DNA of 50,826 bases from Euryarchaeota archaeon RBG_19FT_COMBO_69_17 (GCA_001800825.1 MGWD01000027.1:13015-63840), one strand, 5' to 3'. Positions 25,775 through 43,749 are shown, counted from the stretch's first letter. Translations and numbers: made by a program. Notes: generated by a model from the sequence alone, not told the origin.

Positions 25775-26308
25775 TTAACGCTTTCTCCGGGGTCGGCGGG
25801 GCCGGGCGGGCGGCGCCCGAACGCCGACGTGTCGCGCGAGCCGGCGAACCTCCTTGTCGGACATCCAGAAGACCTTGAGGTACTCGAACAGCTCGCGGTC
25901 GTTCATCCCGAGCCGCTGGCCCTCCGCGATGCACGTCCGGTACGCCTCGATCTCCGTGGGGAGGTCCGGATACTCGTATCCGTCCTCGAAGAGTTCCTTC
26001 CCCTCCCGGAACTGCCGGACGTGGACGAGCTCATGGACGATGTCGAGGTAGATGTCCCTCGGGTTCCCGGTCCTCAAGTAGTGGGTGGAGACCATGAGAT
26101 GGCCGTCCTCGTCGCTCACGCCCATGAACCCCCACTTCGAGGAGTAGAACTCGACCCGGAGGGATCGCAGGGCCTTCGCCGTCGCGGGCCCGAAGATCGC
26201 CCGCACCGCGGGGACCTTCTCGAACCCGCGGAAGTGGTCCGTGAAGCGGTCGTACGTCAGGCGGATGTTCCTCGGCATGCGGACGTCGGGCAGCTTCGGC
26301 TTCGTCAT
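25775..26308 (-). CDS. putative zinc metallopeptidase (HExxH), family unassigned
   Basis: 177 aa. It has IVHELVHV (HExxH) with a downstream TEIEAY glutamate. Its ATG overlaps the bcp stop (ATGA). The C-terminal tail is basic. Confidence 0.6.
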   Translation of the reverse strand: MTKPKLPDVRMPRNIRLTYDRFTDHFRGFEKVPAVRAIFGPATAKALRSLRVEFYSSKWGFMGVSDEDGHLMVSTHYLRTGNPRDIYLDIVHELVHVRQFREGKELFEDGYEYPDLPTEIEAYRTCIAEGQRLGMNDRELFEYLKVFWMSDKEVRRLARHVGVRAPPARPRRPRRKR

Positions 26309-26769
26309 GGGGTCCCTCCCTGGATCGCGGCGACCGCGCGGAGCGCCTCCCTCTCGTGGGCTTTCGGGTCGACCTTCTGGAACGCCGCGCGGATCGTCCC
26401 CTCCGGCCCGATCACGTACGTGACCCGCTTCGCGACCCCGAGCAGGCCAAGGGCGTTGTACCTTCGGCTAAGCTCCTTCGTCGGATCCGCGAGGAGGGGG
26501 AAGTTGAGGGCGTATTTGTCCCGGAACTCGCGGTGGGACGCCTCGTCCTGCGTGCTCACGCCGAACACGAGGGCCCCCGCGGACCGGAACGCCTCGATCC
26601 GGTCCCGGAACGCGCACGCCTCGCGGGTGCAACCCGGGGTGTCGTCCGCGGGATAGAAGTACAGGACCACGGGGCGGCCCCGGAGGTCCTCGAGCCGGAC
26701 CGGGTTCCCGTCCTGGTCCCTCGCCGTGAAGTCGGGCGCCACGGTCCCCGGCGCAAGGAGGCTCGCCAT
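26305..26769 (-). CDS. bcp: peroxiredoxin Bcp/PrxQ
   Basis: It has FYPADDTPGCTREAC, with peroxidatic and resolving Cys residues 5 positions apart. Confidence 0.9.
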   Translation of the reverse strand: MASLLAPGTVAPDFTARDQDGNPVRLEDLRGRPVVLYFYPADDTPGCTREACAFRDRIEAFRSAGALVFGVSTQDEASHREFRDKYALNFPLLADPTKELSRRYNALGLLGVAKRVTYVIGPEGTIRAAFQKVDPKAHEREALRAVAAIQGGTP

Positions 26770-26929: not shown

Positions 26930-27922
26930 ATGGCCGGCCCGGTTCGTATCCCGCCCGCGGAGGCGCTCCAGCGCTCGTACCTCACGGTCCGGGACCCGCG
27001 GATGCAGCGCGTCCTGCGCGTTCAGGCGGCCCTCGGCATGACGATCCGGGAGTACCTGAACGGCCACGGATTCGTCGAGCTCCTGCCGCCGATCATCGGG
27101 CCCGTCGCGGACCCCGGGCTCCGCGGGGCGAAGCAGGCGACGATCAACTTCTACGGCCGCGAGTACAAGGTCATGTCGAGCGCGATCCTGTACAAGCAGA
27201 TGATGGCCGCCTCCCTCGGGAAGATCTACTTCTTCTCCCCGAACGTGCGACTGGAGCCCCTCGAGACCGCGACGACGGGGCGGCATCTCGCGGAGTTCGT
27301 CCAGGTCGACATCGAGGAGGCCGGGGCGACATACGAGGACGCGATGGCCCGCGCGGAGGACCTCGTGAGGACCGTGATCGCCCATGCGAGGGGGGCTCTC
27401 GGGGACGACCTCGTGGCGTTCGCCCGCCGCCTGAACGGCGGGTCCCGCCCCTTCCGTCGCCTCCTCTACTCGGAGGCCGTCGGCCTCCTGAAGGAGCACG
27501 GCCGCGAGGTCCCCTACGGGGTCGAGATCCCCTGGGAGCACGAGGAGTTCCTCTCGACCCTGTTCGAGGAGCCCTTCTTCATCCACGACTACCCGCGGGG
27601 CTCCCGCGGCTTCTACGACCGGGAGGACCCCGCGAAGCCGGGGATCCTGCGGGACTTCGACCTCCTCTATCCCGAAGGATACGGGGAGGCGATCAGCGGC
27701 GCGGAGCGGGAGCACGAGTACGCGAAGGTCATCGCCCGCCTCCGGGAGACGGGGGAGAACCCCTCGAAGTACGGCTGGTACATCGACATGCTCCGGGAGG
27801 GGATCCCGCCGTCCTCGGGCTTCGGGATCGGGATCGAGCGCCTCACGCGGTACGTGTGCGGCCTCCGGTCGATCTGGGAGGCCCGGCCGTACCCGAAGGT
27901 CCCGGGCGTCTTCAGCCCGTAG
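26930..27922 (+). CDS. class-II aaRS catalytic-core paralog without anticodon-binding domain (archaeal AsnRS-like asparagine synthetase A type)
   Basis: 330 aa. Class II motif 3 is GFGIGIERL, and there is an Asp/AsnRS-like core (FFSPNVRLE, HLAEFVQVDIE). There is no OB-fold N-domain. Confidence 0.8.
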   Translation: MAGPVRIPPAEALQRSYLTVRDPRMQRVLRVQAALGMTIREYLNGHGFVELLPPIIGPVADPGLRGAKQATINFYGREYKVMSSAILYKQMMAASLGKIYFFSPNVRLEPLETATTGRHLAEFVQVDIEEAGATYEDAMARAEDLVRTVIAHARGALGDDLVAFARRLNGGSRPFRRLLYSEAVGLLKEHGREVPYGVEIPWEHEEFLSTLFEEPFFIHDYPRGSRGFYDREDPAKPGILRDFDLLYPEGYGEAISGAEREHEYAKVIARLRETGENPSKYGWYIDMLREGIPPSSGFGIGIERLTRYVCGLRSIWEARPYPKVPGVFSP

Positions 27923-27934
27923 GCGGTCCGAGCG

Positions 27935-29305
27935 ATGAGCGAGCCCCTCACGAAGCTCTTCATGAAGGTCGCGTCCGTCCGGTCCGCGGCGGCCGCGGGG
28001 CGGAGCTTCCTCGAGTCGTACCCCGTGGACGAGATCATCCAGAAGGCGAAGCACGGGCGGGACGCCCTCTACCCCTTCTCCGACCTCGACGAGTACGGGC
28101 GCGCCCTCCTCGGGGCGGACATCGGTCTCAAGCAGCTCACGCGGTTCGCGACCCTCGACCAGCTCGTCCTCCTCCCGCCCATCTTCACCCCGAAGCGCCT
28201 CGAAAAGCTCACGGAGCTGGGCCGGGAGCCGTACTTCAGCGACGTCGACCTCGAGACGACGATCGGCGGCTTCCGCTCGCGGATGCCCGTCACGATGGCG
28301 TCCATGGGCTCGACGGAGGTCGCCCACGGGGCGAGCGCCCAGCTCGGCCGAGGGGCCGCGGAGGCGGGGATCCCGATCGGCCTCGGGGAGAACATCGCGA
28401 CCGTGTGGGGATACGAGCGGCGGTCGAAGGCCTCCATGCCCTCCTTCAAGCAGCGCCTCTTCGCGTACCTCGAGCACCTCGACGGGACCCACGGCGGCGC
28501 GGTGATCCAGCAGAGCGTGGAGGACGCCTCCGACGAGCTCTGGAACAAGGTGTACACGGACCCCGACGTGGAGCCGTACTTCAAGAAGGGTCTCGTCGCG
28601 TTCGAGGTCAAGCTCGGGCAGGGCGCGAAGCCCGGGCTCGGGGGCGAGACGAAGGTGCCCCGGGACGTCGCGCGATCCCTCAAGGGGACGTACTACTTCC
28701 CCGACGACCCCGAGCGTGTGGATCGGGAGATGTACGAGCGGCACAGCGCCCCCGGGACTTTCACGGAGGACATCCTGCGGGGCCAGTTGCGCTCCCTCCG
28801 GAACAACTTCCCGCGCGCGAGGATCTGGATCAAGGCGGGTCCGTTCCGAGACCTCCTCCCCGTCTTCCGCGTCGCGTGGCAGGAGCGGATCGACGCCGTC
28901 CTCGCGGACGGCAAGGAGGGCGGCACGGGGATGAGCCCCGTGATCGCGCTCAAGGACCTCGGCCTGCCGACCCTCGCGTGCCTCACGCGGATCAGCGACG
29001 CGCGGACGGAGGGGCTGCCCCTCTCCTTCGTCCTCTCGGGCCGCCTCTACGACGGCGGGCACGTCGTGAAGGCCCTTGCCCTCGGGGCGAGCGCGTGCGC
29101 CTTCGGACGTCCGTTCGTCGTCGCGGCGGGGGTCGCGGGCGCGAAGGGCGTGCGGAACTTCCTCGAGGCCACGGAGGTCGAGATGCGGATGCTCGTCTCC
29201 GCCCTGGGGAAGTACCGCTTGGCCGACGTCTCCCGGGAGGACGTCGGGTCCCTGGACCGGCACCTCGCGGACGCCCTCAACATCCCGTATGTGTACGCGG
29301 GCTGA
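27935..29305 (+). CDS. FMN-binding glutamate-synthase-family protein (GltB central domain only)
   Basis: It has KLGQGAKPGLGGE and ADGKEGGTG, characteristic of the Glu_synthase FMN domain. There is no amidotransferase domain and no GXGXG domain. Confidence 0.8.
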   Translation: MSEPLTKLFMKVASVRSAAAAGRSFLESYPVDEIIQKAKHGRDALYPFSDLDEYGRALLGADIGLKQLTRFATLDQLVLLPPIFTPKRLEKLTELGREPYFSDVDLETTIGGFRSRMPVTMASMGSTEVAHGASAQLGRGAAEAGIPIGLGENIATVWGYERRSKASMPSFKQRLFAYLEHLDGTHGGAVIQQSVEDASDELWNKVYTDPDVEPYFKKGLVAFEVKLGQGAKPGLGGETKVPRDVARSLKGTYYFPDDPERVDREMYERHSAPGTFTEDILRGQLRSLRNNFPRARIWIKAGPFRDLLPVFRVAWQERIDAVLADGKEGGTGMSPVIALKDLGLPTLACLTRISDARTEGLPLSFVLSGRLYDGGHVVKALALGASACAFGRPFVVAAGVAGAKGVRNFLEATEVEMRMLVSALGKYRLADVSREDVGSLDRHLADALNIPYVYAG

Positions 29306-30782: not shown

Positions 30783-32348
30783 TCAGGACCGTAGGATCTC
30801 CCGGGCTGCATTGTAGCCCGGCGCGCCCGTGACCCCGCCGCCGGGGTGGGCCCCCGAGCCGCACAGCCAGAGGCCGTCGATCGGGGTCCTGTACCGCCCC
30901 CATCCCGGGACGGGGCGGAGGAGGAACTGCTGGTCGAGGCTCATCTCCCCATGGTACACGTGCCCGCCCGTGAGGCCGAAGCGGGCCTCGAGGTCCGGCG
31001 GCGTGAGGATCTCCCGCCCGACGATCGAAGGCCGCAGGCCGGGGAACGCCTCCTCGAGGCGGTCGAGGACCTTCTCCCCGAGCTTCTCCCGGGCCTTGTC
31101 CCAGTCCCCCCGCCGCAGGCCGTACGGCGTGTACTGGACGAGGACGCCCATCACGTGCTTCCCGGGCGGCGCGAGTCCCGAATCCTCGAGGGTCGGCAGG
31201 ATGACGTCGAGGACGGGCTCGTCGGACGCCCTGCCGTACTTCGCGTCGTCGTACGCCCGCTCGACGTAGTCGAGGGAGGGCGCGAGGCGCGTGTGGACGG
31301 GCGGCCGCCCGTCCGCCGCGGGCGCGAACCGAGGGAGGGCGTCGAGGGCGAGGTTCATCTTCGTGAGGACGCCCGTCGCGCGGTACGCGCGGATTGCGGA
31401 GACGAAGGAGGGCTCGAGCTCCGCGGGGTCCACGAGCCGGAGGAACGTCCGCTGGGGGTCCGCGTTGCTCGCGACGGCCCGTGCGGGGACCCGCTCCCCG
31501 GAGGCGAGCTCGACGCCCACGGCCCGCCCGTCCTCCACGAGGATCCGCCGGACCTCTGCGTCCGTCCGGATCGTCGCGCCGGAGGCCCGGGCCGCGTCCG
31601 CGAGGGCGGCCGCGAGCTGTCCCATCCCCCCGCGCACGAGGGCCCATGAGCCGCCGTTGACGTACGCGAGGGCGCCGTGGAGGAGCCCGAACGCGGTCCC
31701 CGGGGACCGCGGCCCGCGGAACGATCCCAGGAGGGCGCCGAACGCGAGGGTCGCCCGGAGGAGGTCCGTCTCGAACCACTCCCTCAGAAGCTGGTGCAGG
31801 CTCATGGGCGGGAGCCGGAGCGCCTGCCCCATCGCGTCCTTCCCGAGCTTCCGGAGGCGTAGGGCGCGCCGGAGGAAGAAGGCCTGCTCGCCGAGGCCCA
31901 CCCCCGAGAGATCCGGGGGCGTCCGCAGGAGGAGAGGGTCCATGACGGCCGCGAGCTGGACGAGCATCTTGAGGAAGCGCGGGTACGCGGCCGCGTCGGC
32001 CGCGGAATGGGTCCGGAGTCCCTCCGCGGTCCGGGGGAGGTCCCGGAAGAGCGTGAGGGTGTCCCCGTCGTCCCCGAGGGCCACGAGCTCCGGGTCCACG
32101 GGGATCAGCCCGAGGCCGCGGGCCGCGAGCCCGAGGTCCCGGACGATCTCGGGCCGCAGGAGGCCGCAGAAGTCGGCGGCCGTCGAGGCCCGGAAGCCCG
32201 GCGCGATCTCCTCCGTCGCGGCGGCCCCGCCGACCTGGGACCGGCGTTCGAGGACCACGACCCGGCGGCCCGCCCTCGCGAGGTACGCGGCGGCCACGAG
32301 GCCGTTGTGCCCGCCCCCGACGATGGCCACGTCCCAGGCGTCCGCCAT
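30783..32348 (-). CDS. phytoene-desaturase-related (COG1233, PYROXD2-like) FAD/NAD(P) oxidoreductase, paralog 1
   Basis: It has WDVAIVGGGHNGLVAAAYLARAG...LERR...GGAA.TEE..PGF and the C-terminal LRPVPGW..YRTPI.GLWLCGSGAHPGGGV. Confidence 0.85.
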   Translation of the reverse strand: MADAWDVAIVGGGHNGLVAAAYLARAGRRVVVLERRSQVGGAAATEEIAPGFRASTAADFCGLLRPEIVRDLGLAARGLGLIPVDPELVALGDDGDTLTLFRDLPRTAEGLRTHSAADAAAYPRFLKMLVQLAAVMDPLLLRTPPDLSGVGLGEQAFFLRRALRLRKLGKDAMGQALRLPPMSLHQLLREWFETDLLRATLAFGALLGSFRGPRSPGTAFGLLHGALAYVNGGSWALVRGGMGQLAAALADAARASGATIRTDAEVRRILVEDGRAVGVELASGERVPARAVASNADPQRTFLRLVDPAELEPSFVSAIRAYRATGVLTKMNLALDALPRFAPAADGRPPVHTRLAPSLDYVERAYDDAKYGRASDEPVLDVILPTLEDSGLAPPGKHVMGVLVQYTPYGLRRGDWDKAREKLGEKVLDRLEEAFPGLRPSIVGREILTPPDLEARFGLTGGHVYHGEMSLDQQFLLRPVPGWGRYRTPIDGLWLCGSGAHPGGGVTGAPGYNAAREILRS

Positions 32349-32351
32349 GGA

Positions 32352-33950
32352 TCACGGCCTCCCGAGGCCCCAGTCCCGCAGGATCTCCCGGGCCGCGTTG
32401 TACCCGGGCGCCCCCATGACCCCCCCGCCCGGATGGGCACCCGAGCCGCATAGGTACAGCCCCTTGACGGGCGTGCGGTACTGGGACCACCCGGGCACGG
32501 GCCGCAGGAAGAAGAGCTGGTTCGGCCACAGCTCCCCCTGGAAGATGTTGCCGCCCGTGAGGCCGAACTCCTGCTCGAGGTCCCAGGGGGTGAGGACCTG
32601 CCGGTGGAGGATCGCCTTGGGCAGGTTCGGGGCGTACTCCGCGAGGGTCTCGACGACCGCGTCGCCGAACTCCTCCCGCCGCTCCTCCCACGTCCCCTTC
32701 CTCAACGTGTACGGCGCGTATTGGACGAAGATCGACATGACGTGCTTCCCGGGCGGGGCCATCCCGGGGTCCAGGGTCGACGGGAGGAGGCAGTCGAGGT
32801 ACGGGCGCTTCGAGAAATCCCCGTACTTCGCGTCGTCGTACGCCTTCTCGATGTAGTCCACGCTCGGGCTGATCGAGAGGGAGCCGCGGAGGTGCTCCCC
32901 CCTCCCCGGGAGGGACGTGAACTCCGGGAGCTCCTTCAGGGCGAGGTTTACCTTCCCGGAGGAACCCTCCGTGACGTAGGCCTCGATTCCCCGCACGAAG
33001 TCCGCGGGCAGTTCGCTCCTGTCGAGGAACGCCAGGAAGGTCCGTTTGGGGTCCACGCTCGACGCGACGGCCCTCGCCTCGATCCGCGTGCCGTCCGCGA
33101 GTTCGACCCCGACGGCCCGCCCGTCCCGGGTGGCGATGCGCCGCACGTCGGCGTCCGTCCGGATGTCCACCCCATGGGCGCGGGCCGCGGACGCGATGGA
33201 CTCGCTCACCATCCCCATCCCGCCCTTCACGAACCCCCAGGCCCGGAACGCGCCGTCGACCTCGCCCATGTAGTGGTGGATCAGCACGTACGCGGTCCCC
33301 GGCGACCGCGGGCCGAGGAACGTCCCGATGATCCCGCTCGCGGACATCGTCCCTTTGAGGACGTCCGTCTCGAACCACTCGTCGAGGTAGTCTGCAGCGC
33401 TCATCGTCAGGAGGCGTGCGAAGGTCGTGAGGACCTCCTCGTCGGCCCCCTTGAAGTAGCCCAGGAGCTCGAGGAGCTTCGCGACGTTTCCCGGGCTCAG
33501 GGAGCCGATGTCCGGGGGCGTCATCCCGAGCTGGGGCTTCACGAGCCGCGCGATGCGGACCATGAGCTGGCCGAACTTCGGGTACGCCTCCGCGTCCCGC
33601 TTCGAGAACTTGGCGATCGCCCGGCGGTTCTCCTCGGAGTCCCCGCCCCGGTACAGGTACCGGCCGTCGGGCATGGGGGAGAACGTCGACTCCACGGGGA
33701 CGATCTGGTACCCGTGGACCGGGAGGTCGAGGTCCCGGATGATCTCGGGCCTCAGGAGGCTACAGACGTACGAGCACTCCGTGTACTTGAACCCGGGATA
33801 GATCTCTTCCGTGACCGCGGCGCCCCCGAGGACTTTCCGTCGCTCGAGGACGAGGACCTTCTTGCCCGCCCGGCCCAGGTACGCGGCCGTCACGAGGCCG
33901 TTGTGCCCGCCCCCGATGACGATGACGTCGTACCCGTTCCCCGGCCCCAT
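32352..33950 (-). CDS. PYROXD2-like FAD/NAD(P) oxidoreductase, paralog 2
   Basis: The start is placed at the ATG at 33950 (MGPGNGYDVIVIGGGHNGL). Its stop lies 3 nt before the paralog 1 start. It shares the same N- and C-terminal motifs. Confidence 0.85.
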   Translation of the reverse strand: MGPGNGYDVIVIGGGHNGLVTAAYLGRAGKKVLVLERRKVLGGAAVTEEIYPGFKYTECSYVCSLLRPEIIRDLDLPVHGYQIVPVESTFSPMPDGRYLYRGGDSEENRRAIAKFSKRDAEAYPKFGQLMVRIARLVKPQLGMTPPDIGSLSPGNVAKLLELLGYFKGADEEVLTTFARLLTMSAADYLDEWFETDVLKGTMSASGIIGTFLGPRSPGTAYVLIHHYMGEVDGAFRAWGFVKGGMGMVSESIASAARAHGVDIRTDADVRRIATRDGRAVGVELADGTRIEARAVASSVDPKRTFLAFLDRSELPADFVRGIEAYVTEGSSGKVNLALKELPEFTSLPGRGEHLRGSLSISPSVDYIEKAYDDAKYGDFSKRPYLDCLLPSTLDPGMAPPGKHVMSIFVQYAPYTLRKGTWEERREEFGDAVVETLAEYAPNLPKAILHRQVLTPWDLEQEFGLTGGNIFQGELWPNQLFFLRPVPGWSQYRTPVKGLYLCGSGAHPGGGVMGAPGYNAAREILRDWGLGRP

Positions 33951-34005
33951 GGACTCCTCCCCTCCTGGTCTCGCGTCTCCTCCGCCCCGCCCACCGCCAC
34001 GGAAT

Positions 34006-34022
34006 CGTTTCCGGGGGAAACG
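34006..34022. promoter_or_regulatory. palindrome CGTTTCC-GGG-GGAAACG in a divergent intergenic region
   Basis: 7-bp arms. A second palindrome, ACGCT-TT-AGCGT, lies at 34037-34048. Both fall between the divergently transcribed paralog-2 and GcvT-like genes. Confidence 0.3.
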
Positions 34023-34165
34023 AGCGGTCCCACTTAACGCTTTAGCGTCTGGGCCCCTGTACGGAGACGTCACAACGTCGAGCGCGCAAAGGTTTTATCG
34101 AACCCGCGGCATCCCGCCGCATTCGGCGCGCGCCGCGCGCCGGAGGGGAAGTCGGGAGCGAGACG

Positions 34166-35353
34166 ATGCCGCGGGGGACGCCCTTCCACTCGAGGACAGC
34201 CGCCCTGTGCGAGTCCCACGCCTGGAGGAACTGGTCCGGCTACCTCGCCGCGAGCTCCTACACCCTCGTCCCCGAGATGGAGTACCACGCAATCCGCATG
34301 GGCGCCGCCCTCATCGACGTCTCGCCCCTGTTCAAGTACCACGTCACGGGGAAGGACGCGACCCGGCTCGTGAACAAGGTCATCACCCGGGACGCGGCGT
34401 CGTGCAAGCCGAACCAGGTCCTCTACACCCCGTGGTGCGACGAGCGCGGGAAGACCGTGGACGACGGGACCGCGTGGAACCTCGGGGACGGCTCCTGGCG
34501 CATGACGTCGGCCGAGCCGAACTTCAAGTGGCTCCAGGACAGCGGGGTCGGGATGGACGCCGAGGTCGAGGACGTCTCCGAGGACATCGCGGCGGCGGCC
34601 CTCCAGGGGCCGACCTCGCGGGCGATCCTCCACGACCTCGTGGACGGGGCCGTCGACAAGCTCCGTTTCTACCGCTTCACCCGCGCGAAGCTCGACGGGA
34701 TCGACGCGACGATCTCCCGTACCGGGTACACGGGGGACCTCGGGTACGAGGTCTGGGTCCCGCGGGAGAAAGCGGAGCGCGCGTGGGACGCCCTCATGGA
34801 CGCGGGCCGGGGCCACGGGATCGAGGCTGCGGGGATGCTCGCGCTGGACATCGCCCGCATCGAGGCGGGCTTCATCCTCGCGGAGGTCGACTACATGCCC
34901 TCGCGGAAGGCCCTCATCGACGCCCAGCGCTACTCGCCGTTCGAGCTGAGCCTCGATTGGACCGTCGCCCTCGACAAGGGCGGTTTCGTCGGGCGGCGGG
35001 CCCTCCGGGAGGAAGCCCGTCGGGGTCCGCCCCGCCGGATCGTCGGGCTCGAGGTCGACTGGGCCCGGGCGGAGCGGTTCTTCCACGAGAAGGGCCTCCC
35101 CGCGGAGCCCCCTCGCCTCGCCTGGCGATCCAACGTCCCCGTGTACGCGGGGATGTGGCAGGTCGGGCGGGCGACGAGCGGCACGTGGTCTCCCCTCCTC
35201 AAGCGGTACCTCGTCCTCGCGACGGTCGACGCCGGGTACGCGGCGGAGGGCACGGAGCTCGAGATGGAGATCACGGTCGAGGGGGAACGGAAGCGCGCGC
35301 CGGCCCGCGTCGTGAAGCGGCCGTTCTTCGATCCCCCGCGGAAGAAGGCGTGA
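34166..35353 (+). CDS. GcvT-family aminomethyltransferase-like (folate-binding) protein
   Basis: 395 aa. It has ISRTGYTGDLGYEVW and an overall GcvT / sarcosine-oxidase-C-terminal pattern. Confidence 0.85.
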   Translation: MPRGTPFHSRTAALCESHAWRNWSGYLAASSYTLVPEMEYHAIRMGAALIDVSPLFKYHVTGKDATRLVNKVITRDAASCKPNQVLYTPWCDERGKTVDDGTAWNLGDGSWRMTSAEPNFKWLQDSGVGMDAEVEDVSEDIAAAALQGPTSRAILHDLVDGAVDKLRFYRFTRAKLDGIDATISRTGYTGDLGYEVWVPREKAERAWDALMDAGRGHGIEAAGMLALDIARIEAGFILAEVDYMPSRKALIDAQRYSPFELSLDWTVALDKGGFVGRRALREEARRGPPRRIVGLEVDWARAERFFHEKGLPAEPPRLAWRSNVPVYAGMWQVGRATSGTWSPLLKRYLVLATVDAGYAAEGTELEMEITVEGERKRAPARVVKRPFFDPPRKKA

Positions 35354-35408
35354 ACTCTCGGGTCCCCGGCAATCCATTTATCGGAGTTCCGGGTTGCGGC
35401 CCGTGGCG

Positions 35409-36971
35409 ATGCCGTCCTTCGACGCGATCATCATCGGCGGGGGCCACAACGGGCTCATCGCCGCCGCGTACCTCGCGAGGGCGGGCCTGAGGGCCCTCGT
35501 CCTCGAGCGCCGCCCGATCCTAGGGGGCGCGAGCATCACGGAGGAGATCCACCCCGGGTTCCGCGTGAGCACGCTCGCGTACGCATGCGGCCTCCTGCGG
35601 TCGGAGATCAAGGAGGAGCTCGAGCTCGAGCGATTCGGCCTCGACGAACGTCCGTACGACCCGTCCCAGTTTCTGCCGTTCCCCGACGGGAGGCACCTCC
35701 TGTTCCGTCACGACGCGGCGTGGAACGCGGAGCAGGTCGCGAAGTTCTCCAGGGCGGACGCGCAGGCCCTCCCCCGGTACGAACGGTTCTGGAGGGAGTT
35801 CGCGGAGCTCGTGGAGCCCACGCTCCTCGCCCCGCCCGTCTCCCTCGCGGACCTCGTGTCCCTCGTGCGGACCCCCGAGGCGGAGGACTTCCTCCGCCAG
35901 CTCATGCTCCGCTCCGTCGCGGACCTCCTCGACGACTTCTTCGAGTCCGACGAGGTCAAGGCGTCCTTCGCGACGAGCGCGGTCGCAGGCACCCTCGCAG
36001 GGCCCCGGACCCCCGGCACGGCGTTCGTCCTCGGCCACCACACCCTCGGGACGATCCGGGGCCAGAAGGGGGTGTGGGGCTGGGTACGGGGTGGGATGGG
36101 GGCGATCCCCGATGCGATCGCCCGGGCGGCCCGCGCACACGGGGCGGAGATCCGCACGTCCGCACCCGTCTCCCGGATCCTCGTGCGGGACGGCCGCGTC
36201 GCGGGCGTGGAGATTCTGGACGGGGCGCGGATCGAGTCCCGGGTCGTCGTGAGCGGCGTAGACCCCCGGCGCACGTTCCTTGGCCTCGTCGGCGCGGACC
36301 ACCTGCCCGAGGACTTCGTGCGGGCCGTCGCGCGGATCCGCATGGAGTCGTCCTCGTTCAAGTTGAACCTCGCCCTCCGGGAGCTGCCCGACATCACCGC
36401 GGTCCCCGGGACCCACCTCCAGGACCACCACCGGGCGATCCTCGACATCGCGCCGTCCATGGACTACCTCGAGAGGGCCTTCGACGACGCGAAGTACGGC
36501 CGGCCGTCCCGGGAGCCGTTCCTCGAGTTCGTGATCCAGAGCGCGAACGACCCGACCGTCGCGCCGCCGGGGATGCACACCCTCACCGTGTCCGCGAAGT
36601 TCGCCCCTTTCGATCTCGCGAAGGGCACCTGGGACGACGAGGGGGAGGCGTTCGCGGACCGCATCCTCGAGACCCTCGAGGCGTACGCCCCGAACCTCCG
36701 GCGGGCCGTCGTCGCGAAGCACATCTACACGCCGCTCGACATGGAACGGGAGCACGGGATGACCCGGGGGGACGTGTTCCACGGGGCGATCCTGCCGTAC
36801 CAGATGTTCTCGTTCCGCCCCGTCCCGGGCTGGTCCCAGTACCGGACCCCCGTCGAGGGGCTCTACCTGGGCGGGGCCGGCGCCCACCCGGGCGGCGGCG
36901 TCCTCGGCGCCCCGGGTCGGAACGCGGCCACGGCGGTCCTCGAGGACTGGCCCCGTCTCAAGGGCGCCTGA
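35409..36971 (+). CDS. PYROXD2-like FAD/NAD(P) oxidoreductase, paralog 3
   Basis: ATG at 35409 (MPSFDAIIIGGGHNGLIAAAYLARAG). The listed TTG at 35394 is possible. It ends with the same C-terminal motif, RPVPGWSQYRTPVEGLYLGGAGAHPGGGV. Confidence 0.85.
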   Translation: MPSFDAIIIGGGHNGLIAAAYLARAGLRALVLERRPILGGASITEEIHPGFRVSTLAYACGLLRSEIKEELELERFGLDERPYDPSQFLPFPDGRHLLFRHDAAWNAEQVAKFSRADAQALPRYERFWREFAELVEPTLLAPPVSLADLVSLVRTPEAEDFLRQLMLRSVADLLDDFFESDEVKASFATSAVAGTLAGPRTPGTAFVLGHHTLGTIRGQKGVWGWVRGGMGAIPDAIARAARAHGAEIRTSAPVSRILVRDGRVAGVEILDGARIESRVVVSGVDPRRTFLGLVGADHLPEDFVRAVARIRMESSSFKLNLALRELPDITAVPGTHLQDHHRAILDIAPSMDYLERAFDDAKYGRPSREPFLEFVIQSANDPTVAPPGMHTLTVSAKFAPFDLAKGTWDDEGEAFADRILETLEAYAPNLRRAVVAKHIYTPLDMEREHGMTRGDVFHGAILPYQMFSFRPVPGWSQYRTPVEGLYLGGAGAHPGGGVLGAPGRNAATAVLEDWPRLKGA

Positions 36972-36973
36972 CC

Positions 36974-37864
36974 CTAGGTCCCGCGGGCCTGGGTTTCGTA
37001 CGGATCGAGGAAACCCGCCTCCCCGCTCTCCACGTAGTTCCGCAAGTTCACGAGCCGCTCCGACCATGCTCCGCGATCGCGGAGGACGTCCCCCGGTCGG
37101 TCCTGCGGATAGCCGACGGCCCGGAGGTACACGGCGGTCCCGCTCGCCTTCGCCTCGAGCTCGAAGGAGACGCGCATCCCTTCCGGGCCGGTGCCGCCCG
37201 CCAGGACGAGTCGCCGGTTCGTCTCGATCTCCCGAACCCGGTCGGGCCCGCCGCCCCGCCCCAGGGCGAACGCCCCACCCGGCCGTGGCTCGACGACGGC
37301 GCGACCTCGGGGGGTCCCGCCCGTGGACCAGTGGTCCACGGCGTCTGCGGCGGCGAGGGCCGCGAACACGCGGTCCGCGGGGGCCTCGATGATCGTCGTG
37401 AGGCGGACCTCGGGCTCCTCCACGGGAGCATGGTCCGGCCGGACCCCGTCGCTCCTCCCCTCCGCGATCGCCTTGAGGTTCCCGAGGCAGATCCGCCAGG
37501 CGTCGTGGACGGTCCCGCAGGTGCTCTCCGCCACGGGCACCCCCGCGTGCCGGGCGCGCAGGACCGTCGCGGCGTCGCCCTCGTCCTCGAGCTCGTACGC
37601 GACCCGCGTCGGGACGCCCGCGATGGGCCACGTGAACGCGAACCGGCGGAGGGTCTCCCCCTCGTCGATCGTCGTCTCCCAGCCCCGGCCCTCCGGGAGG
37701 ACGATGCACGTCTCCCCGCCGAACTTGAACGACCCGCCGACCCGCGGCTCGATCCGCGCCCAGCCGCAGAACCAGCGGGCGAGGTGTTCGATCCGCAGGA
37801 GGCGCTCGAAGACGACGCCGCGGGGCGCGCGGATGCGCATCCGGATGTCGTAGTCCGTGCCCAT
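36974..37864 (-). CDS. tandem SRPBCC (AHSA1/START-like) domain protein
   Basis: It has two repeats of the pattern I.AP...VF..L......WF/W...., each about 140 aa. The start is ATG 37864, and 37906 is also possible. Confidence 0.7.
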   Translation of the reverse strand: MGTDYDIRMRIRAPRGVVFERLLRIEHLARWFCGWARIEPRVGGSFKFGGETCIVLPEGRGWETTIDEGETLRRFAFTWPIAGVPTRVAYELEDEGDAATVLRARHAGVPVAESTCGTVHDAWRICLGNLKAIAEGRSDGVRPDHAPVEEPEVRLTTIIEAPADRVFAALAAADAVDHWSTGGTPRGRAVVEPRPGGAFALGRGGGPDRVREIETNRRLVLAGGTGPEGMRVSFELEAKASGTAVYLRAVGYPQDRPGDVLRDRGAWSERLVNLRNYVESGEAGFLDPYETQARGT

Positions 37865-37976
37865 GGGGTGCCGCCGGACAAGCGGCGCGGCCTCTTGAAG
37901 GTACACCTAGGAACCGAACCTATTTCCGTCCCACCGTGGTCCCGAGGCGCGGTCGGCAGGACGGAGGCCTACGGAG

Positions 37977-39146
37977 ATGGGACGCGCATACGCGGTCGTC
38001 GGCGCGGGGCGGCAGGGGACGGCGGCGGCCTACGACATGGCGAGGTTCGGCGACGCGGACGAGGTCGTCCTCGCGGACGTGGACCTGGCGCGGGCGCGGA
38101 AGGCCGCGGCGCGGGTGAACCGCCTGGTGTCCCACCGGGTCGCGCGGGGCGTCACGGCCGACGTGCGCCGGGAGGCGTCCGTTCGACGCGTCCTCCGGGA
38201 CGCGGACGTCGCCCTGAGCGCGGTCCCGTACTTCTTCAACCTGGGGCTCGCGAAGCTCGCCCTCGAGACGAAGACCTCCTTCGTCGACCTCGGAGGCAAC
38301 ACGGACATCGTCCGGAAGGAACAGGCCCTCGACCGGCAGGCGAGGAAGGCGGGGGTCGCAATCGTCCCGGACTGCGGGATGGGCCCGGGCCTCAACGTGA
38401 CCTTGTCCGTCCGCTCGATGGAGCTGCTCGACGTCCCCGAGCGCGTCGTCGTGTACGACGGGGGCCTGCCCCAGGACCCGAAGCCCCCGTGGAACTACGA
38501 GCTCACGTTCAATATCGAGGGCCTGACGAACGAGTACCACGGCACGGCGCCCGCGATCCGGGACGGGCGGGTCGTCCGGCTGCCCGGCTTCTCGGAGTAC
38601 GAAGTCGTGGACGTCCCGGGCGTGGGGCGCCTCGAGGCGTTCGTCGTCGCGAGCAGCCTGTCCACGGCCCCGTGGTCCTTCCTGGGGATCCTGAAGTCCT
38701 ACGAGGGCAAGATCCTCCGGTACCCCGGCCACTTCGCCCAGATGACCGCGTTCCGGGACCTGGGCCTCTTCGAACTCGAGCCCGTCGTCGTCGACGGGAG
38801 GCCCGTCGTCCCGCGCCACGTGTTCCACGCCCTCTACGAGTCCCAGGTCACGCCGAAACAGATCCGGGACGTGTGCATCGAACGGGCCGTGGCCCGCGGG
38901 ACGAAGGACGGCCGCCCCGCGGAGGCCGTCGTCGAGCTCGTCGACCGGGCCGACGAGGCCACCGGCTTCACGTCGATGGAGCGGCTCACGGGCTGGCACG
39001 CGGCGATCGTGGCGGAGATGATCGCGCACGGCCGAATCCCTCCGGGCGCCCATCCCGTCGAGCTCGGCGTGCCCGCGGGCCCCTTCGTCGAGGAAGGGCG
39101 CCGCCGCGGCCTTCGGATCACGGAAGAGGTGCGGCCGACGGCTTGA
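37977..39146 (+). CDS. saccharopine dehydrogenase-family protein (lysine-6-dehydrogenase-like)
   Basis: It has the N-terminal Rossmann motif YAVVGAGRQG and the family motif PDCGMGPGLNV. Confidence 0.75.
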   Translation: MGRAYAVVGAGRQGTAAAYDMARFGDADEVVLADVDLARARKAAARVNRLVSHRVARGVTADVRREASVRRVLRDADVALSAVPYFFNLGLAKLALETKTSFVDLGGNTDIVRKEQALDRQARKAGVAIVPDCGMGPGLNVTLSVRSMELLDVPERVVVYDGGLPQDPKPPWNYELTFNIEGLTNEYHGTAPAIRDGRVVRLPGFSEYEVVDVPGVGRLEAFVVASSLSTAPWSFLGILKSYEGKILRYPGHFAQMTAFRDLGLFELEPVVVDGRPVVPRHVFHALYESQVTPKQIRDVCIERAVARGTKDGRPAEAVVELVDRADEATGFTSMERLTGWHAAIVAEMIAHGRIPPGAHPVELGVPAGPFVEEGRRRGLRITEEVRPTA

Positions 39147-39148: not shown

Positions 39149-42100
39149 CTACGTCCGGCCGTTCGCGGGACCCGGACCCGGGCCCTTCGGCGCCTCGAGA
39201 GGGCTCAGCCCGCGCATGAATCCGCCCGTCTCCTTCGCCCCGTAGAGGCGTTCGAGGAGCAGCTTGACGTCCGAGATCCGGTCCATGTCCCCGTTCCAGT
39301 CCACGAGGACGCCCTTGAACCGCTTCTCGACCTCGCGCACGACCTCCTGGGCTCGGCGGTCGATCCGGCCCGAGGCGCGCCCGCGGTACAGGACGAGGAG
39401 GGTCACGTACTGCCCCTTCGCGAGGGCGACCCGGTGGTCCGCGAGCTCGATGCTCTTGAGTTCCCCGACTCCCAGGGAATGGAAGGACTCGTTCATGAAG
39501 GCCTGGATCGCCGTGAACATGGAGGCGACGAGGTCGGGGTCCTTGTCCGCCGTGAGTGTGCGGGACAGGTGGACGAGGGGGATCCCTCCTCCGTAGATCA
39601 GGAACACGTGCTCGGTCGTGGAGCGAAGGGCGCGCGTCATGACGATCACGACGCCCGCCCCGGCGAGGGCGAGGAGCCAGGGGAGCAGGGTCGAGAACAG
39701 GTCCGGGCCGACGATCTGGACGCTCAGGGTGAGGTACGTCGCGAGCTCGAAGTCCAGGATGCTCACGTTGACGAGGTCTTCCCGCACGCTGTCGGGGTAG
39801 TCGAAGATTACGAGGAGGCCCTGGGTCTGGACGTAGGGGTGGGTCGTCCAGGCCCGGAGCGCGTCCCCCTCGACGTCCCATACGTAGTCGAAGAGGTTGA
39901 AGAAGAACGAATGGTCCCGCGACACGATGACGGGGATCTCGGTGAAGCGCGGCGCATCGTTCACGGGCCTTACGGTGACCTTGATCGTGTCCTCCGAATA
40001 GGCCCCCCGCTCGTCCCGCGCGCGGAACGTGACCTGTTCGATTCCGTACCAGTCCGGGACCTGGCTCTGGAAGTCGACGGAGTGGTCCGTCCGGATCGTG
40101 ACCTCGAGGTTCACCTGGCCCGAGGTGTAGAAGATCGTTGAGCCTGGGTCCACGTCGATGAAGTACGTGTCGAGGTTGAAGGCTCCGACGCGGGGGACGT
40201 CCTCGAGGAAGCTCTGGTCCGGGATCGGGATCACGAGCACGGGCGGGTGGTCGTCTGTCACGGAGACGCTCGTGATGAGCCGTCCCTCGTCGACCGTGTC
40301 GTTCGCCACGATCACGAGCGGCAGGACATACGGCGTCGTCAGGAAGGGCGGGATGGAGAAAGGGAACAGCATCTCGAGGACGGTCCCGTTCACGGTCACG
40401 TACGCGGGTTTGTCCGTCGAGATGCGGATCTCGGAGAGGGCGTTGTCGGGGTCCGTGATGTGCGGCGCGAGGTCGAAGCGGTACGTCTCGTTGTAGTGGA
40501 CGACGAACGGCGGGAGGTAGGCGATCGACGGCGGGTCGTTCACGGGCTGGACCGTCACGAGGATCGTATCCTCCGCGATGGCCCCCTGGGGGTCCTCCGC
40601 CCGGAACGTGAGGGACTCCGCCCCGAACCAGTTCCCGAGGGCCCGGATGTCCACGGAGTGGTTCGCCTGGATGATCGCCTCGACATGGCTCGCGCCGTAC
40701 GAGTAGAAGAGGGCGTCGTTGTCGGGGTCCTGGAAGTAGTCGTCGAGGTCGAAGACCCCCGTCCGCAGCTCCCCCTCCCACAGGGTCACGTCCTCGAGGG
40801 ACCGTATGAGGACGGGCGGGGTGTCGTCCGAGACGCCGATTGCCGCGGAGTGCCTCGCCTGGAGCTGGCCGTCGTCGACCGTGAAGATCACGAAGTCCCA
40901 GGGCTCCGCGTAGTTGGCGGGGTAGTTGAAGCGGACCGTGAGGTTCCCCGTGAACCCCGTCACGTGGGGACTGTTCGTCACGAGGCGGAGCTCGCTGTCC
41001 AGGTTGTCGATGTCGAAGATGTGGGGGCCGAAGTCGAAGTAATAGGGAGCGCCGCGGCGGACGTGCATCGTGGTTGGCGCGAAGGGACCGAAGACGGGGG
41101 CGTCGTTGACCGGAGTGATGTTGACCCAGAGGGGCTGGGCATCATACCGGTTCCCCTCGTCGAAGATGATGAGGGTCACCACGTTCGACCCGTAGGCGTT
41201 CGGCTGGGGGTAGAAGGTGAGGGTGTGGTTCCCCGTGATGTTCCCGCCCTGGTACTCGAAGAGGCTTCGGTTGACCCCCGCGAGGTCCCAGCGTCGGAGC
41301 TGGATCGGGGTGTCAGGGTCTTGGGAGTAGCTCGTGAGATCGAGGGACCAGCTGTACGTGTCCTCCGGGTAGATCTGGTTCGGGACCGTACCGCGGATCG
41401 AAGGTTCCAGGTTCTCGTTGTACAGGACGTCGAGGACCGGGACGAACGTCGCGTTCCCTTCGCGGGATGCGAGGGTCGTGATCCCGGGCACGCTTTCGTC
41501 GGACGCCTTGATCACGAGGCCGACGTTGGGCTGGGCCAGGCTCGTCCAGGACTGCACGAGGCTCGTGACGTTCCAAGAGGCCCAAGCGCCCGTGGCGGGG
41601 GAAAGGGCGAGCGCGGCCCGCGTCGCGTCGTAGTCCGAGCCGGGGGCCGCCCACAAGGTCGTCCCGTCCGTCGTGCGCCACGTCACGCCGGTCCCCGAGA
41701 GGCTCTCGTGGGCCGGCAACGTCGGCAGGAGGAGGGGGGCCCCGTCGGGCGAGTTCCCGTCGAGGAACCGCCCCGTCATGTTGTAGTTGTACCCCGTCAT
41801 CCGGAAGTCGTGCCCGAGGCTCGCGGTCGAGTACGCGTACGTCCGGTCGCGGGAACTGAAGACGATCTCCATTGTCCCGTCCCCGTCGAGGTCCGCGACG
41901 GCGGGGGTCGCCGTGACACCCGTCGTGGTCGGGAAGGACCGGATGAGGCCGCCCGAGGTCGTCGGGTCGAAGACGTACAGGTTCCCCGCCCAGCTCCCGA
42001 TCAGGACGTCCTCCACGCCGTCGAGGGTCACGTCCGCGGCCGCGGGCACCGCGTACACGGCGCCGCTCACGCCGGACGTCCAGAGGGTGTTCGGGTTCGG

Positions 42101-43696
42101 CGAGGTCGAGTCGATCGCCCGGACCGAATTCCGCCGGGTCAAGGCGAAGAGGGTCTCCGTCAGCCCGTCGTCCTCGAAGTCGACGAGGATCTGGCCGCCG
42201 AACTGGTTCGAGAGGGACTGATGGTTCCAGACGACGATGCCATCCGTCCCGCGGAACGCGAATTGGTTCCCGTTGTTCCCCTGATCTCCCGCGACGATGT
42301 CCAGGTATCCGTCCCCGGTGAAATCTGCGAGACTCGGGGTCACGACCGTCGTCTGCGTGGTCGGGCTGTAGATTGCGGCCGTGGTCCCGTTCGGGTTGAC
42401 GATGTAGAAATTCCCGCCCGTTGTCGTGTACGTGATCTCGGGGCCGGGGCCCCCTCGCACGTTCCCGACTGCGGCGCCGTACCCCCAGTCGGATCCGGCC
42501 GCGATGCCGATGGACCATCGGAATGTCCCGTTGTTCGCGAAGAACGAGTAGAGCTCCTTGTCCTGGGACCCGACATAGATTTCCTTGATTCCGTCCCTGT
42601 CCGTGTCGGACAGGGCGATGGGGGAGAGGATCGCGTTCGCGGGGTACAGGCCGGAGTCCCAGAGGTACTGGCCGTCCCAGGTGAGGGCGTACAGGCGCAC
42701 GTCGGAGGGCCCGTTCACCGCGTAAAGCACCTCGGGGTGCGCATCCCCGACGACGTCCGCGACCGTGAGCACGTAATCGACGGGGGCCGTGGCCAGGTAC
42801 TTCCACAGCTCCGACCCGTCCGCCCGCAGGGCGTAGATCCAGCCCGTCGTGGACCCGAAGACGATCTCCATCCGGCCGTCGAGGTCGAGGTCCGCGGCCG
42901 TAGGGGATGCGTAGTTGGATCCGTTCGGGTAGGACCACAGCTGGTTCCAGGGGGTGACCGTCCGGTACGGGGGGACGACGGCCAGGGAGTTGCCGAACTG
43001 GAGGGAGTACGTCGCAGTCTGCATCGCGGGAACCGTGGCCCCGAAGACGACGTGGAGTTCCGTGATCGCGGAGCCCCAGTACGTGTCCCCGTAGATCTGG
43101 CTCGGGACCTCCCGGCCCGCGTCGTCGTAGACTCGGAAGTCCGCGAGGGTCGTCGTCGTGAGGTTCACGGGGAGGACATACCGGATGTCGACGGGTTCCC
43201 GGAGCCGCGAGACGCCTGCGGTCTCCCGGAGGACGATGGGCTGGCGGTACGCGAACTGGCTCCCCGTGCCCTCCGTCCAGGGCGTCCGGACGCGGTGCAC
43301 GTCGAGGACCTGGCCCGCGGGTCCGTCGAGGACATAGCCGCGGAGGGTCGCGTCGAGGATCGTCGCCTGGCGGGGGATCGCGGACAGGTTGAACCGGAGG
43401 GCTCCTCGGTAGATGACGCCCGTCCCCACCCCGACCCCGATCTGGTCGCTCCCTCCGTAGTTGCGGTCAGGGTTCCTCGATTCGATGAAGGCGTCGGCGA
43501 CGGCGGGGAAGGTCCCTTGGGTCGCTCGGGGGGTCGGGGAGGGAGCGTCGGCTGTGCTCGGATCCGCCGCGGGGACGCGGGCCGCCTCGGCCGCCGCGAA
43601 GGCCGGATCCGGAGGGCTTGGCCACGAGGAGAGGAGGATGGCGAAGAGGAGCAGTAGGAGGATGACGCGCGCTGTGCGTCGCTCTCGTGACGGCAT
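39149..43696 (-). CDS. giant (1515 aa) type-I membrane surface protein: signal peptide, two DNRLRE-like modules, FG-GAP/VCBS propeller, six cadherin-like Ig modules, one TM, cytoplasmic globular tail
   Basis: Uninterrupted ORF with GC3-rich codons. The signal peptide is RRTARVILLLLLFAILLSS...AFA|AAE. There are at least six DxDxDG Ca-loop repeats. The V.PVNDAP / DD.PPVL module ends repeat. The TM helix is LLPWLLALAGAGVVIVM, at about nt 39635-39700. Confidence 0.85.
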   Translation of the reverse strand: MPSRERRTARVILLLLLFAILLSSWPSPPDPAFAAAEAARVPAADPSTADAPSPTPRATQGTFPAVADAFIESRNPDRNYGGSDQIGVGVGTGVIYRGALRFNLSAIPRQATILDATLRGYVLDGPAGQVLDVHRVRTPWTEGTGSQFAYRQPIVLRETAGVSRLREPVDIRYVLPVNLTTTTLADFRVYDDAGREVPSQIYGDTYWGSAITELHVVFGATVPAMQTATYSLQFGNSLAVVPPYRTVTPWNQLWSYPNGSNYASPTAADLDLDGRMEIVFGSTTGWIYALRADGSELWKYLATAPVDYVLTVADVVGDAHPEVLYAVNGPSDVRLYALTWDGQYLWDSGLYPANAILSPIALSDTDRDGIKEIYVGSQDKELYSFFANNGTFRWSIGIAAGSDWGYGAAVGNVRGGPGPEITYTTTGGNFYIVNPNGTTAAIYSPTTQTTVVTPSLADFTGDGYLDIVAGDQGNNGNQFAFRGTDGIVVWNHQSLSNQFGGQILVDFEDDGLTETLFALTRRNSVRAIDSTSPNPNTLWTSGVSGAVYAVPAAADVTLDGVEDVLIGSWAGNLYVFDPTTSGGLIRSFPTTTGVTATPAVADLDGDGTMEIVFSSRDRTYAYSTASLGHDFRMTGYNYNMTGRFLDGNSPDGAPLLLPTLPAHESLSGTGVTWRTTDGTTLWAAPGSDYDATRAALALSPATGAWASWNVTSLVQSWTSLAQPNVGLVIKASDESVPGITTLASREGNATFVPVLDVLYNENLEPSIRGTVPNQIYPEDTYSWSLDLTSYSQDPDTPIQLRRWDLAGVNRSLFEYQGGNITGNHTLTFYPQPNAYGSNVVTLIIFDEGNRYDAQPLWVNITPVNDAPVFGPFAPTTMHVRRGAPYYFDFGPHIFDIDNLDSELRLVTNSPHVTGFTGNLTVRFNYPANYAEPWDFVIFTVDDGQLQARHSAAIGVSDDTPPVLIRSLEDVTLWEGELRTGVFDLDDYFQDPDNDALFYSYGASHVEAIIQANHSVDIRALGNWFGAESLTFRAEDPQGAIAEDTILVTVQPVNDPPSIAYLPPFVVHYNETYRFDLAPHITDPDNALSEIRISTDKPAYVTVNGTVLEMLFPFSIPPFLTTPYVLPLVIVANDTVDEGRLITSVSVTDDHPPVLVIPIPDQSFLEDVPRVGAFNLDTYFIDVDPGSTIFYTSGQVNLEVTIRTDHSVDFQSQVPDWYGIEQVTFRARDERGAYSEDTIKVTVRPVNDAPRFTEIPVIVSRDHSFFFNLFDYVWDVEGDALRAWTTHPYVQTQGLLVIFDYPDSVREDLVNVSILDFELATYLTLSVQIVGPDLFSTLLPWLLALAGAGVVIVMTRALRSTTEHVFLIYGGGIPLVHLSRTLTADKDPDLVASMFTAIQAFMNESFHSLGVGELKSIELADHRVALAKGQYVTLLVLYRGRASGRIDRRAQEVVREVEKRFKGVLVDWNGDMDRISDVKLLLERLYGAKETGGFMRGLSPLEAPKGPGPGPANGRT
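39701..41407 (-). repeat. coding tandem repeat: three A/B double modules (~190 aa each) of cadherin-like domains
   Basis: A modules end ITPVNDAPVF / VQPVNDPPSI / VRPVNDAPRF (nt ~41110, ~40545, ~39960). B modules end VSDDTPPVL / VTDDHPPVL. A2 and A3 align along their whole length. Confidence 0.6.
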
Positions 43697-43727
43697 GGAG
43701 CTCCCTAACGATCTCCCCCTGATGGGA

Positions 43728-43749
43728 GGGCGACACAGTCGGGTCGCCC
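43728..43749 (-). promoter_or_regulatory. 7-bp GC hairpin in the putative 5' leader of the giant gene
   Basis: GGGCGAC-N8-GTCGCCC lies between a TATA-like CATTTAGA (43756-43763) and the ATG at 43696. Confidence 0.3.

Follow-up and report, generated by a model that had tools for sequence, protein, structure and literature searches.

The window analysed here, a stretch of 50,826 nucleotides from Euryarchaeota archaeon RBG_19FT_COMBO_69_17 (GCA_001800825.1 MGWD01000027.1:13015-63840), carries three paralogous flavoprotein genes of the PYROXD2 type arranged around the gene of a stand-alone GcvT-like folate-binding protein. This cluster probably encodes a split, folate-coupled oxidative N-demethylase for betaine-derived methylamines. 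From gene content, protein families, conservation of the module and recurrent neighbours, all of which were observed directly, we infer the chemistry, the formation of a complex, the substrate and the electron acceptor. The conserved unit consists of the GcvT-like gene and two of the paralogs, B and A; the third, C, is specific to an archaeal genus. The core of the cluster is organized as follows (window coordinates).

30783-32348, minus strand: FAD_A, 521 aa, second, faster-evolving PYROXD2-like paralog, directly downstream of FAD_B
32352-33950, minus strand: FAD_B, 532 aa, slowly evolving and most conserved PYROXD2-like flavoprotein, Pfam Amino_oxidase
33951-34165, no strand: intergenic control region from which FAD_B and the GcvT-like gene diverge, with a TATA-like element
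34166-35353, plus strand: stand-alone GcvT-like folate-binding protein, 395 aa, GCV_T and GCV_T_C
35409-36971, plus strand: FAD_C, 520 aa, third PYROXD2-like paralog, genus-specific

Organization of the cluster

As the window has a G+C content of 70%, genes were called from third-position GC (GC3) and from lists of open reading frames (ORFs). A preceding sequence-only reading had described three paralogs of about 520 amino acids around a GcvT-family gene, and GC3 calls, ORFs and Pfam matches bear this out. The N- and C-terminal motifs that it quoted for the paralogs are all present, as is GYTGDLGYE in the GcvT-like protein. Two of the paralogs are indeed in tandem, the TGA stop codon of FAD_B and the ATG start codon of FAD_A being 3 nt apart, and FAD_C directly follows the GcvT-like gene, with its start 55 nt past the stop codon of the latter. 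A and B on the minus strand thus run divergently from the GcvT-like gene and C on the plus strand. Upstream, the ORF of FAD_B stays open as far as a GTG at 34073, but the start at 33950 is the one shared by homologues and by the gene call of the database.

A TATA-like sequence, TTTTATCG, lies at about 34093-34100 (element 34091-34104) in front of the GcvT-like gene, and a similar TTTATCG at 35374-35384 precedes FAD_C. The resemblance suggests that the two genes have separate, putative archaeal promoters of one type. A scan of the cluster for sigma-70 promoters and terminators, a type of scan unsuited to an archaeon, gave no match.

The flavoproteins and the PYROXD2 family

The three flavoproteins are mutually 45-51% identical over their full length (E <= 1e-133; A and B, 51%). 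Each has a full-length match to Pfam Amino_oxidase (PF01593; 85, 73 and 64 bits for A, B and C, respectively) and a GGGHNGL dinucleotide-binding motif. The match to DAO (PF01266) is confined to the Rossmann N-terminus of A and B and, in C, to about 280 N-terminal residues. There is no curated model of the PYROXD2 family in the libraries searched. A human PYROXD2 sequence served as a search probe only; it retrieved more than 100 proteins named PYROXD2 by NCBI or UniRef, and the comparisons were made with these named database sequences. Against PYROXD2 of mouse, gibbon, cow and a marsupial, A, B and C show 41-43% identity over about 545 columns (366-430 bits), FAD_B and the mouse protein reaching 42.5% and 430 bits. 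The similarity of the three to PYROXD2 almost equals their similarity to one another. FAD_B has more than 8000 homologues, the bacterial ones being 62-66% identical. A search of the PDB for a structure of this flavoprotein family found none; the sole match was CrtI (4dgk), with 58 bits and about 20% identity.

A quick maximum-likelihood tree with CrtI as its root and single outgroup sequence places PYROXD2 in one clade with B, C and two further paralogs of the same genome, paralogs 4 and 5 (98% SH-aLRT). FAD_C groups with paralogs 4 and 5, near PYROXD2. The A-type second paralogs form a sister grade to the PYROXD2/B/C clade, and CrtI sits on a very long outgroup branch. The B clade has 97% SH-aLRT support, and the subtree of the A-type sequences mirrors that of the B-type ones. 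As regards the phylogenetic check that had been proposed, this tree places B and C with PYROXD2 and far from CrtI, but leaves A outside that clade. In the paralog alignment, the second histidine of an HH motif is missing in A and kept in B and C; presumably it is kept in PYROXD2 too, as it is found in the probe sequence.

A function of the paralogs as CrtI/CrtO-like desaturases or ketolases of carotenoids or isoprenoids, with the GcvT-like gene as an unrelated neighbour, is very improbable. Such an assignment could draw on the CrtO ketolase model (NF045689), which is the best NCBIfam model for all three (A 284, B 318 and C 313 bits), and on the AlphaFold2 model of FAD_B (pLDDT 82.8), for which the top PDB folds are the carotenoid desaturases 4rep and 4dgk. 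However, the CrtO scores are far under the equivalog cut-off of 1000, and mouse PYROXD2, with 276 bits, displays the same sub-threshold NCBIfam pattern. Scores with crtI_fam (TIGR02734) are 148.8, 115.4 and 152.6 bits for A, B and C, under the subfamily cut-off of 238.1. The genome as a whole (2.21 Mb, 94% complete) has five such paralogs, with 110-152 bits to the CrtI model and none above the cut-off; no match to phytoene/squalene synthase (SQS_PSY, PF00494) was found across it, and no crt genes were seen in about 100 related loci examined. Furthermore, the linkage of flavoprotein and GcvT-like genes holds across domains, and the long branch of CrtI speaks against membership in the carotenoid clades as well. 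On the sub-threshold CrtI and CrtO scores, the lack of a match to phytoene synthase and the tree, the sequence-only assignment to the COG1233/PYROXD2 family, rather than to carotenoid clades, can be upheld.

Following 4rep and 4dgk, the next folds matched by the FAD_B model are those of C-N-oxidising flavoenzymes: NicA2, 6-hydroxynicotine oxidase, monoamine oxidase and putrescine oxidase. Since desaturases and C-N oxidases are both among the top matches, the predicted fold permits either C-C desaturase or C-N oxidase chemistry, between which a fold search cannot discriminate.

The GcvT-like protein

The GcvT-like protein contains GCV_T (PF01571, 196.3 bits) and GCV_T_C (PF08669, 56 bits), both above gathering score, and keeps a GG/DD-type motif (…GKTVDDG…) in addition to GYTGDLGYE. 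Its best match is the C-terminal half of trimethylamine N-oxide (TMAO) demethylase (274 bits in NCBIfam, 191 bits in PDB); T proteins, SoxA and DMGDH/DMGO come next. Although it has the two domains of a T protein, it is hardly credible that it is the genuine T protein of glycine cleavage. It scores below the cut-offs of the gcvT models (TIGR00528 and NF001567; 154.9 and 153 bits against 235.85, and 218.3 against 300), and the genome has a canonical gcvT (321 bits) on contig C18, with gcvH on C45, C28 and C42 and gcvP on C32 and C24. In the search of the organism's own contigs, neither gcvH, gcvP nor the canonical gcvT was found near the window. On both counts, the objection foreseen in the sequence-only reading, namely that this gene might be the genuine glycine-cleavage one, does not hold. 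A third member of the GcvT family, DmdA-like, follows gcvH at C28:4214-5439, where it is cut by the contig end.

Conservation of the module in archaea and bacteria

Eighty soil and sediment metagenome loci were fetched, anchored on B orthologues with 61-72% identity. The second paralog lies directly downstream of B in 61 of the 63 loci with enough downstream sequence, at a median estimated gap of about 8 nt. Among the 60 loci with at least 1.6 kb upstream of B, 45 have a GcvT-like gene (52-68% identity) within 8 kb on that side; it is divergent from B in 39 of these 45, and in most it is less than 400 bp away. The closest relatives of the GcvT-like protein are found in Thermoplasmatota metagenome-assembled genomes with the same order A-B<>T (where T is the GcvT-like gene and <> marks divergence). 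In two Acidimicrobiia, T is directly followed by one paralog, and two large bacterial contigs (6.3 and 3.6 Mb) carry T<>B-A, one of them with genes for a Rieske oxygenase, a formate-tetrahydrofolate ligase (FTHFS) and a DAO protein beside it. In soil metagenomes the module has at least 589 confirmed matches. The pairing of flavoprotein and GcvT genes first seen in this genome is therefore conserved in archaea, Acidimicrobiia and many soil-metagenome lineages. Of the module of three paralogs initially proposed, the combination of the GcvT-like gene with B and A is widespread and C occurs in this genus only.

Within its own Thermoplasmata genus, the GcvT-like gene is present in 24 of 24 genomes. 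No orthologue was found in 16 genomes from other families of the same order, nor in 200 other genomes sampled across the phylum. With the own genome as the sole match among these 201 genomes, the archaeal distribution is restricted to the genus rather than phylum-wide.

The genes around the module were grouped by de novo clustering over 86 loci and checked with Pfam and NCBIfam. Recurrent families are AA_permease_2 (17 loci), bona fide PurU (12 loci), GbcA-like Rieske oxygenases (8 of 86), class-III aminotransferases (7 loci, and a second cluster in 4) and aldehyde dehydrogenase (4 loci). Rieske homologues adjoin the module in L005, in L010 and in seven metagenome loci.

These patterns also bear on a different division of labour, in which the GcvT-like protein would be a self-sufficient, tetrahydrofolate (THF)-dependent methyltransferase of the DmdA/LigM type, yielding 5-methyl-THF, and the flavoproteins would oxidise the demethylated skeleton, either through C-N oxidation and ensuing deamination or through C-C desaturation. 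We consider this unlikely, although several observations fit it. The GcvT superfamily has flavin-independent demethylases, and the GcvT-like protein matches DmdA (129 bits) and, weakly, LigM/DesA; a quarter of the B-A loci have no GcvT-like gene in the upstream sequence available; and genes for class-III aminotransferases and aldehyde dehydrogenase recur near the module. On the other hand, the best matches of the GcvT-like protein are not DmdA and LigM but the formaldehyde- or iminium-capturing domains of TMAO demethylase (Tdm), T protein, SoxA and DMGDH, and enzymes that pass on an unstable intermediate typically show a linkage as tight as that of T, B and A, which often lie within 400 bp. 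The PurU and FTHFS neighbours suit this division of labour and a folate-coupled oxidative demethylase alike.

Neighbouring genes and a probable link to betaine metabolism

Further genes of the window that are relevant here are the following.

26305-26769, minus strand: Bcp-type peroxiredoxin, AhpC-TSA
36974-37906, minus strand: tandem AHSA1/SRPBCC-domain protein, 310 aa, Pfam AHSA1 in two stretches
37977-39146, plus strand: saccharopine-dehydrogenase-family (SacDH-like) protein, 389 aa, Pfam Sacchrp_dh_NADP and Sacchrp_dh_C
45740-46942, minus strand: Rieske non-haem iron oxygenase alpha subunit, GbcA-like, Rieske and Ring_hydroxyl_A

Across 20 loci of the genus, the common order is Bcp-A-B<>T-C-AHSA1(-SacDH)-Rieske. 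The part T-C-AHSA is kept in at least 12 of the genus loci, and the AHSA1 gene is syntenic also in L001 and L002. The SacDH-like gene is present in L122, L123, L126 and L129, and in several relatives its place is between AHSA1 and Rieske. The Rieske gene belongs to the cluster, because relatives (L123, L125-L128) place it one to three genes from FAD_C. Its best NCBIfam model is GbcA, with 201 bits, below the cut-off of 670. In the window, a giant surface-protein gene and its neighbours (39149-45743) separate the SacDH-like gene from the Rieske gene; the cluster is compact in L123 and L125-L128.

The bcp gene directly adjoins FAD_A in at least six relatives (L002, L127, L128, L130, L131 and L140). 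At 26930-29305 of the window, genes for an AsnA-like asparagine synthetase of the aminoacyl-tRNA synthetase type and a lone FMN/GltS-like protein lie between bcp and FAD_A. They are syntenic in L121, L124, L129 and L139 and absent in other members of the genus, where bcp abuts FAD_A.

A small CoxG/SRPBCC-like gene precedes paralog 5 elsewhere in the genome (C29:30462-32535), and the tandem SRPBCC (AHSA1) gene follows FAD_C. As both paralogs adjoin SRPBCC genes, SRPBCC proteins may be recurrent partners of paralogs of the C/5 type.

Paralog 4 (C3:53854-56598) lies directly after the gene of a BHMT-like homocysteine S-methyltransferase, which scores 259 bits to rat BHMT1 against 115 bits to MetH. 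The adjacency of the BHMT-like gene and paralog 4 occurs in 13 of 25 genus loci, in both orientations. In the alignment with BHMT, the BHMT-like protein keeps the zinc cysteines and has the substitutions W44F and Y160T. In three relatives, an in-frame TAG in the BHMT-like gene was considered as a pyrrolysine codon and rejected; it is a natural stop that the aligner had read through.

A second link to betaines is provided by MttB-family genes of the non-pyrrolysine type. They directly flank the module in two relatives, and in some relatives a second copy of A-B<>T has such genes on both sides, with genes for a corrinoid protein and a CoA-transferase nearby. The own genome has eight of them, on contigs C27, C63, C44 and C32. 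Two are at C27:66727-69803, on the same contig as the module and 3-6 kb past the window end, and a gene for a flavin amine oxidase, similar to polyamine and monoamine oxidases, is divergent from these two (C27:65227-66648). Corrinoid-protein genes are located at C63:12688-13620 and C44:8463-9179. With eight MttB genes in a genome of 2.2 Mb, the organism looks, from its gene content, like a specialist in demethylating quaternary amines. Non-pyrrolysine MttB proteins are described as quaternary-amine (betaine) methyltransferases (PMC13080624, PMC8604678). That they occur in this archaeal order has been reported before, with no role assigned to them (bioRxiv 10.1101/2020.03.09.984617).

The informative context of the module is that of betaine and one-carbon metabolism: BHMT-like and MttB-family proteins, GbcA-like Rieske oxygenases, PurU and FTHFS. 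The sequence-only reading had listed the Rieske gene at 45740-46942, two saccharopine-dehydrogenase-family genes, an aminotransferase gene and an MFS gene, all of which are real, and had taken them to fit amine or lysine-derivative metabolism. The Rieske gene does form part of the cluster, but the lysine side comes down to synteny within the genus. Saccharopine-dehydrogenase-family proteins gave one weak match in 80 bacterial loci (29% identity, L049) and no repeated cluster. Naming a substrate from the saccharopine-dehydrogenase, aminotransferase and MFS genes was dropped for this reason.

The same genes could be used to argue that the flavoproteins oxidise a secondary amine that is not methylated, with a C-N bond of the opine, saccharopine or polyamine type, while the GcvT-like protein handles a glycine or aminomethyl fragment. 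The two Sacchrp_dh-family genes, the aminotransferase and the MFS gene of the window would fit this idea, as would the flavin amine oxidase gene just past the window end, and polyamine and monoamine oxidases share the fold of the flavoproteins. Yet the idea is improbable: apart from the genus-only synteny of the saccharopine-dehydrogenase-family genes, the neighbours that recur across phyla are genes of one-carbon metabolism and demethylation.

Proposed mechanism

Taken together, the conserved pairing, the non-carotenoid nature of the paralogs and the distinction from gcvT support, at the level of gene context, the earlier proposal of a flavoprotein oxidase acting in trans with a stand-alone protein for folate-dependent one-carbon capture. 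In the proposed N-demethylase pathway, betaines would lose their first methyl group through the Rieske oxygenase, which would convert the quaternary into a tertiary amine, or through a BHMT-like or an MttB-type corrinoid enzyme. The N-CH3 group of the tertiary or secondary methylamine would then be oxidised to an iminium by an FAD enzyme of the PYROXD2 type, whose conserved core is B. B would be the main catalytic N-methyl amine oxidase or dehydrogenase. A evolves faster and is devoid of conserved residues such as the second histidine of the HH motif; it could therefore be a partner subunit of B or else act on the next methyl group. The GcvT-like protein would bind THF and capture the departing carbon in the form of 5,10-methylene-THF rather than as free formaldehyde, and PurU and FTHFS would recycle the folate. 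Likely substrates are products of betaine demethylation, that is, dimethylglycine- or sarcosine-like N-methyl amino acids. The electrons would probably go to O2 or to another acceptor; the peroxiredoxin gene linked to FAD_A hints at O2 and at release of H2O2.

Several points weigh against this proposal. By sequence and by fold, the nearest characterised relatives of the flavoproteins are carotenoid enzymes (CrtO hidden Markov model, 284-318 bits; 4rep and 4dgk), and we know of no member of the flavoprotein family with a demonstrated activity. GcvT-family enzymes such as DmdA and LigM act without a flavoprotein, and in 15 of the 60 B-anchored loci there is no GcvT-like gene in the upstream flank (8 kb in five of them, 1.7-3.7 kb in ten), so the folate partner may not be obligatory. 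No gene for an electron-transferring flavoprotein, a reductase or a ferredoxin was found linked to the module in the loci compared. Gene context, moreover, cannot show that a complex is formed. The positions W44 and Y160 of BHMT, which we take to contact betaine, are substituted in the BHMT-like protein, and glycine betaine itself is therefore not established as the substrate.

Comparison with known systems

In dimethylglycine dehydrogenase, sarcosine dehydrogenase and dimethylglycine oxidase (DMGDH, SARDH and DMGO; PDB 4pab, 5l46, 1pj5), as in the proposed system, an N-methyl group is oxidised by a flavin enzyme and a GcvT-type domain captures the carbon as methylene-THF; the GcvT-like protein of the window aligns to the C-terminal domains of this group at 83-85 bits. 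The use of two paralogous enzymes for successive methyl groups would be a parallel to the pair of B and A. The known enzymes have a flavin domain of the DAO family (PF01266) fused to the folate domain, whereas the window has flavoproteins of the Amino_oxidase type and a separate gene for the folate protein.

The heterotetrameric sarcosine oxidase SoxBDAG (PDB 1vrq, 2gag) resembles the proposed module in having several subunits, with folate and flavin sites on different polypeptides. The gene purU is a classic operon neighbour of this oxidase, and PurU likewise recurs beside modules of the type found in the window. Unlike the module, SoxBDAG has a flavin subunit of the DAO family (SoxB) and a folate domain inside the large subunit (SoxA), and equivalents of SoxD or SoxG are missing from the module.

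Tdm (PDB 9q59, 9q5a; NF053776) contains the closest relative of the GcvT-like protein as its C-terminal GcvT-type domain, the role of which is the capture of a methyl-derived one-carbon unit from a methylamine, as proposed here for the GcvT-like protein. Tdm has a catalytic N-terminal domain of its own and no flavoprotein partner. The GcvT-like protein of the window is without that half and scores far below the cut-off of 1100 bits.

The carotenoid enzymes CrtO and CrtI/CrtD (NF045689, TIGR02734; PDB 4dgk, 4rep) belong to the same superfamily, have the same fold and are the nearest characterised proteins by hidden Markov model and by structure. They differ from the flavoproteins of the window by the sub-threshold scores of the latter, by the lack of a carotenoid pathway in the genome and by a context of one-carbon and amine genes instead.

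Mammalian PYROXD2, finally, shares 41-43% full-length identity, the NCBIfam pattern and a clade with B and C. It is a single mitochondrial gene, whereas the window has several paralogs and a GcvT-like partner; to our knowledge, neither a paired paralog nor a GcvT-like partner has been described for PYROXD2. With respect to the known demethylases, the new aspects of the system are the different flavoprotein family and the split architecture; the window adds its occurrence in archaea and its links to BHMT and MttB.

Implications for the PYROXD2 family and for methylamine turnover

A wider proposal, which we hold with slightly more doubt than belief, is that folate-coupled N-methyl amine demethylases include a third class, which evolved independently and has the PYROXD2 family as its catalytic core. 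The prokaryotic form would be a heteromer of B, A and the GcvT-like protein operating downstream of betaine demethylases, and human PYROXD2 would be a mitochondrial demethylase for substrates such as N-methylpipecolate, N-methyl-lysine or dimethylamine. Literature searches on phytoene dehydrogenase, aminomethyltransferase and demethylation, and on PYROXD2 in combination with demethylase, sarcosine, dimethylglycine or THF, found no paper proposing an N-demethylase function. The PYROXD2 locus is a human metabolite quantitative trait locus for urinary trimethylamine, plasma dimethylamine and N-methylpipecolate (PMC3169529, PMC5780481), and these associations are consistent with N-demethylation. 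Biallelic PYROXD2 variants lead to a severe infantile mitochondrial disorder (PMC8777681).

PYROXD2 is thus a human disease gene and among the strongest human metabolite quantitative trait loci, and the papers searched assign it no enzymatic function. The prokaryotic context provides a specific and testable reaction: oxidative N-demethylation with hand-over of the one-carbon unit to folate, from which a small set of candidate substrates can be drawn up. If this holds true, a role of PYROXD2 as an N-methyl demethylase would explain both the metabolite associations and the infantile mitochondrial disease.

Soil metagenomes contain the module very frequently, and it may represent a major unrecognised route for the turnover of methylated amines and osmolytes. 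The window shows that a non-methanogenic, MttB-rich genus of soil Thermoplasmata has this module as well. If the proposed function is correct, the archaeal module would link corrinoid-dependent demethylation of betaines to the aerobic oxidation of the remaining methyl groups.

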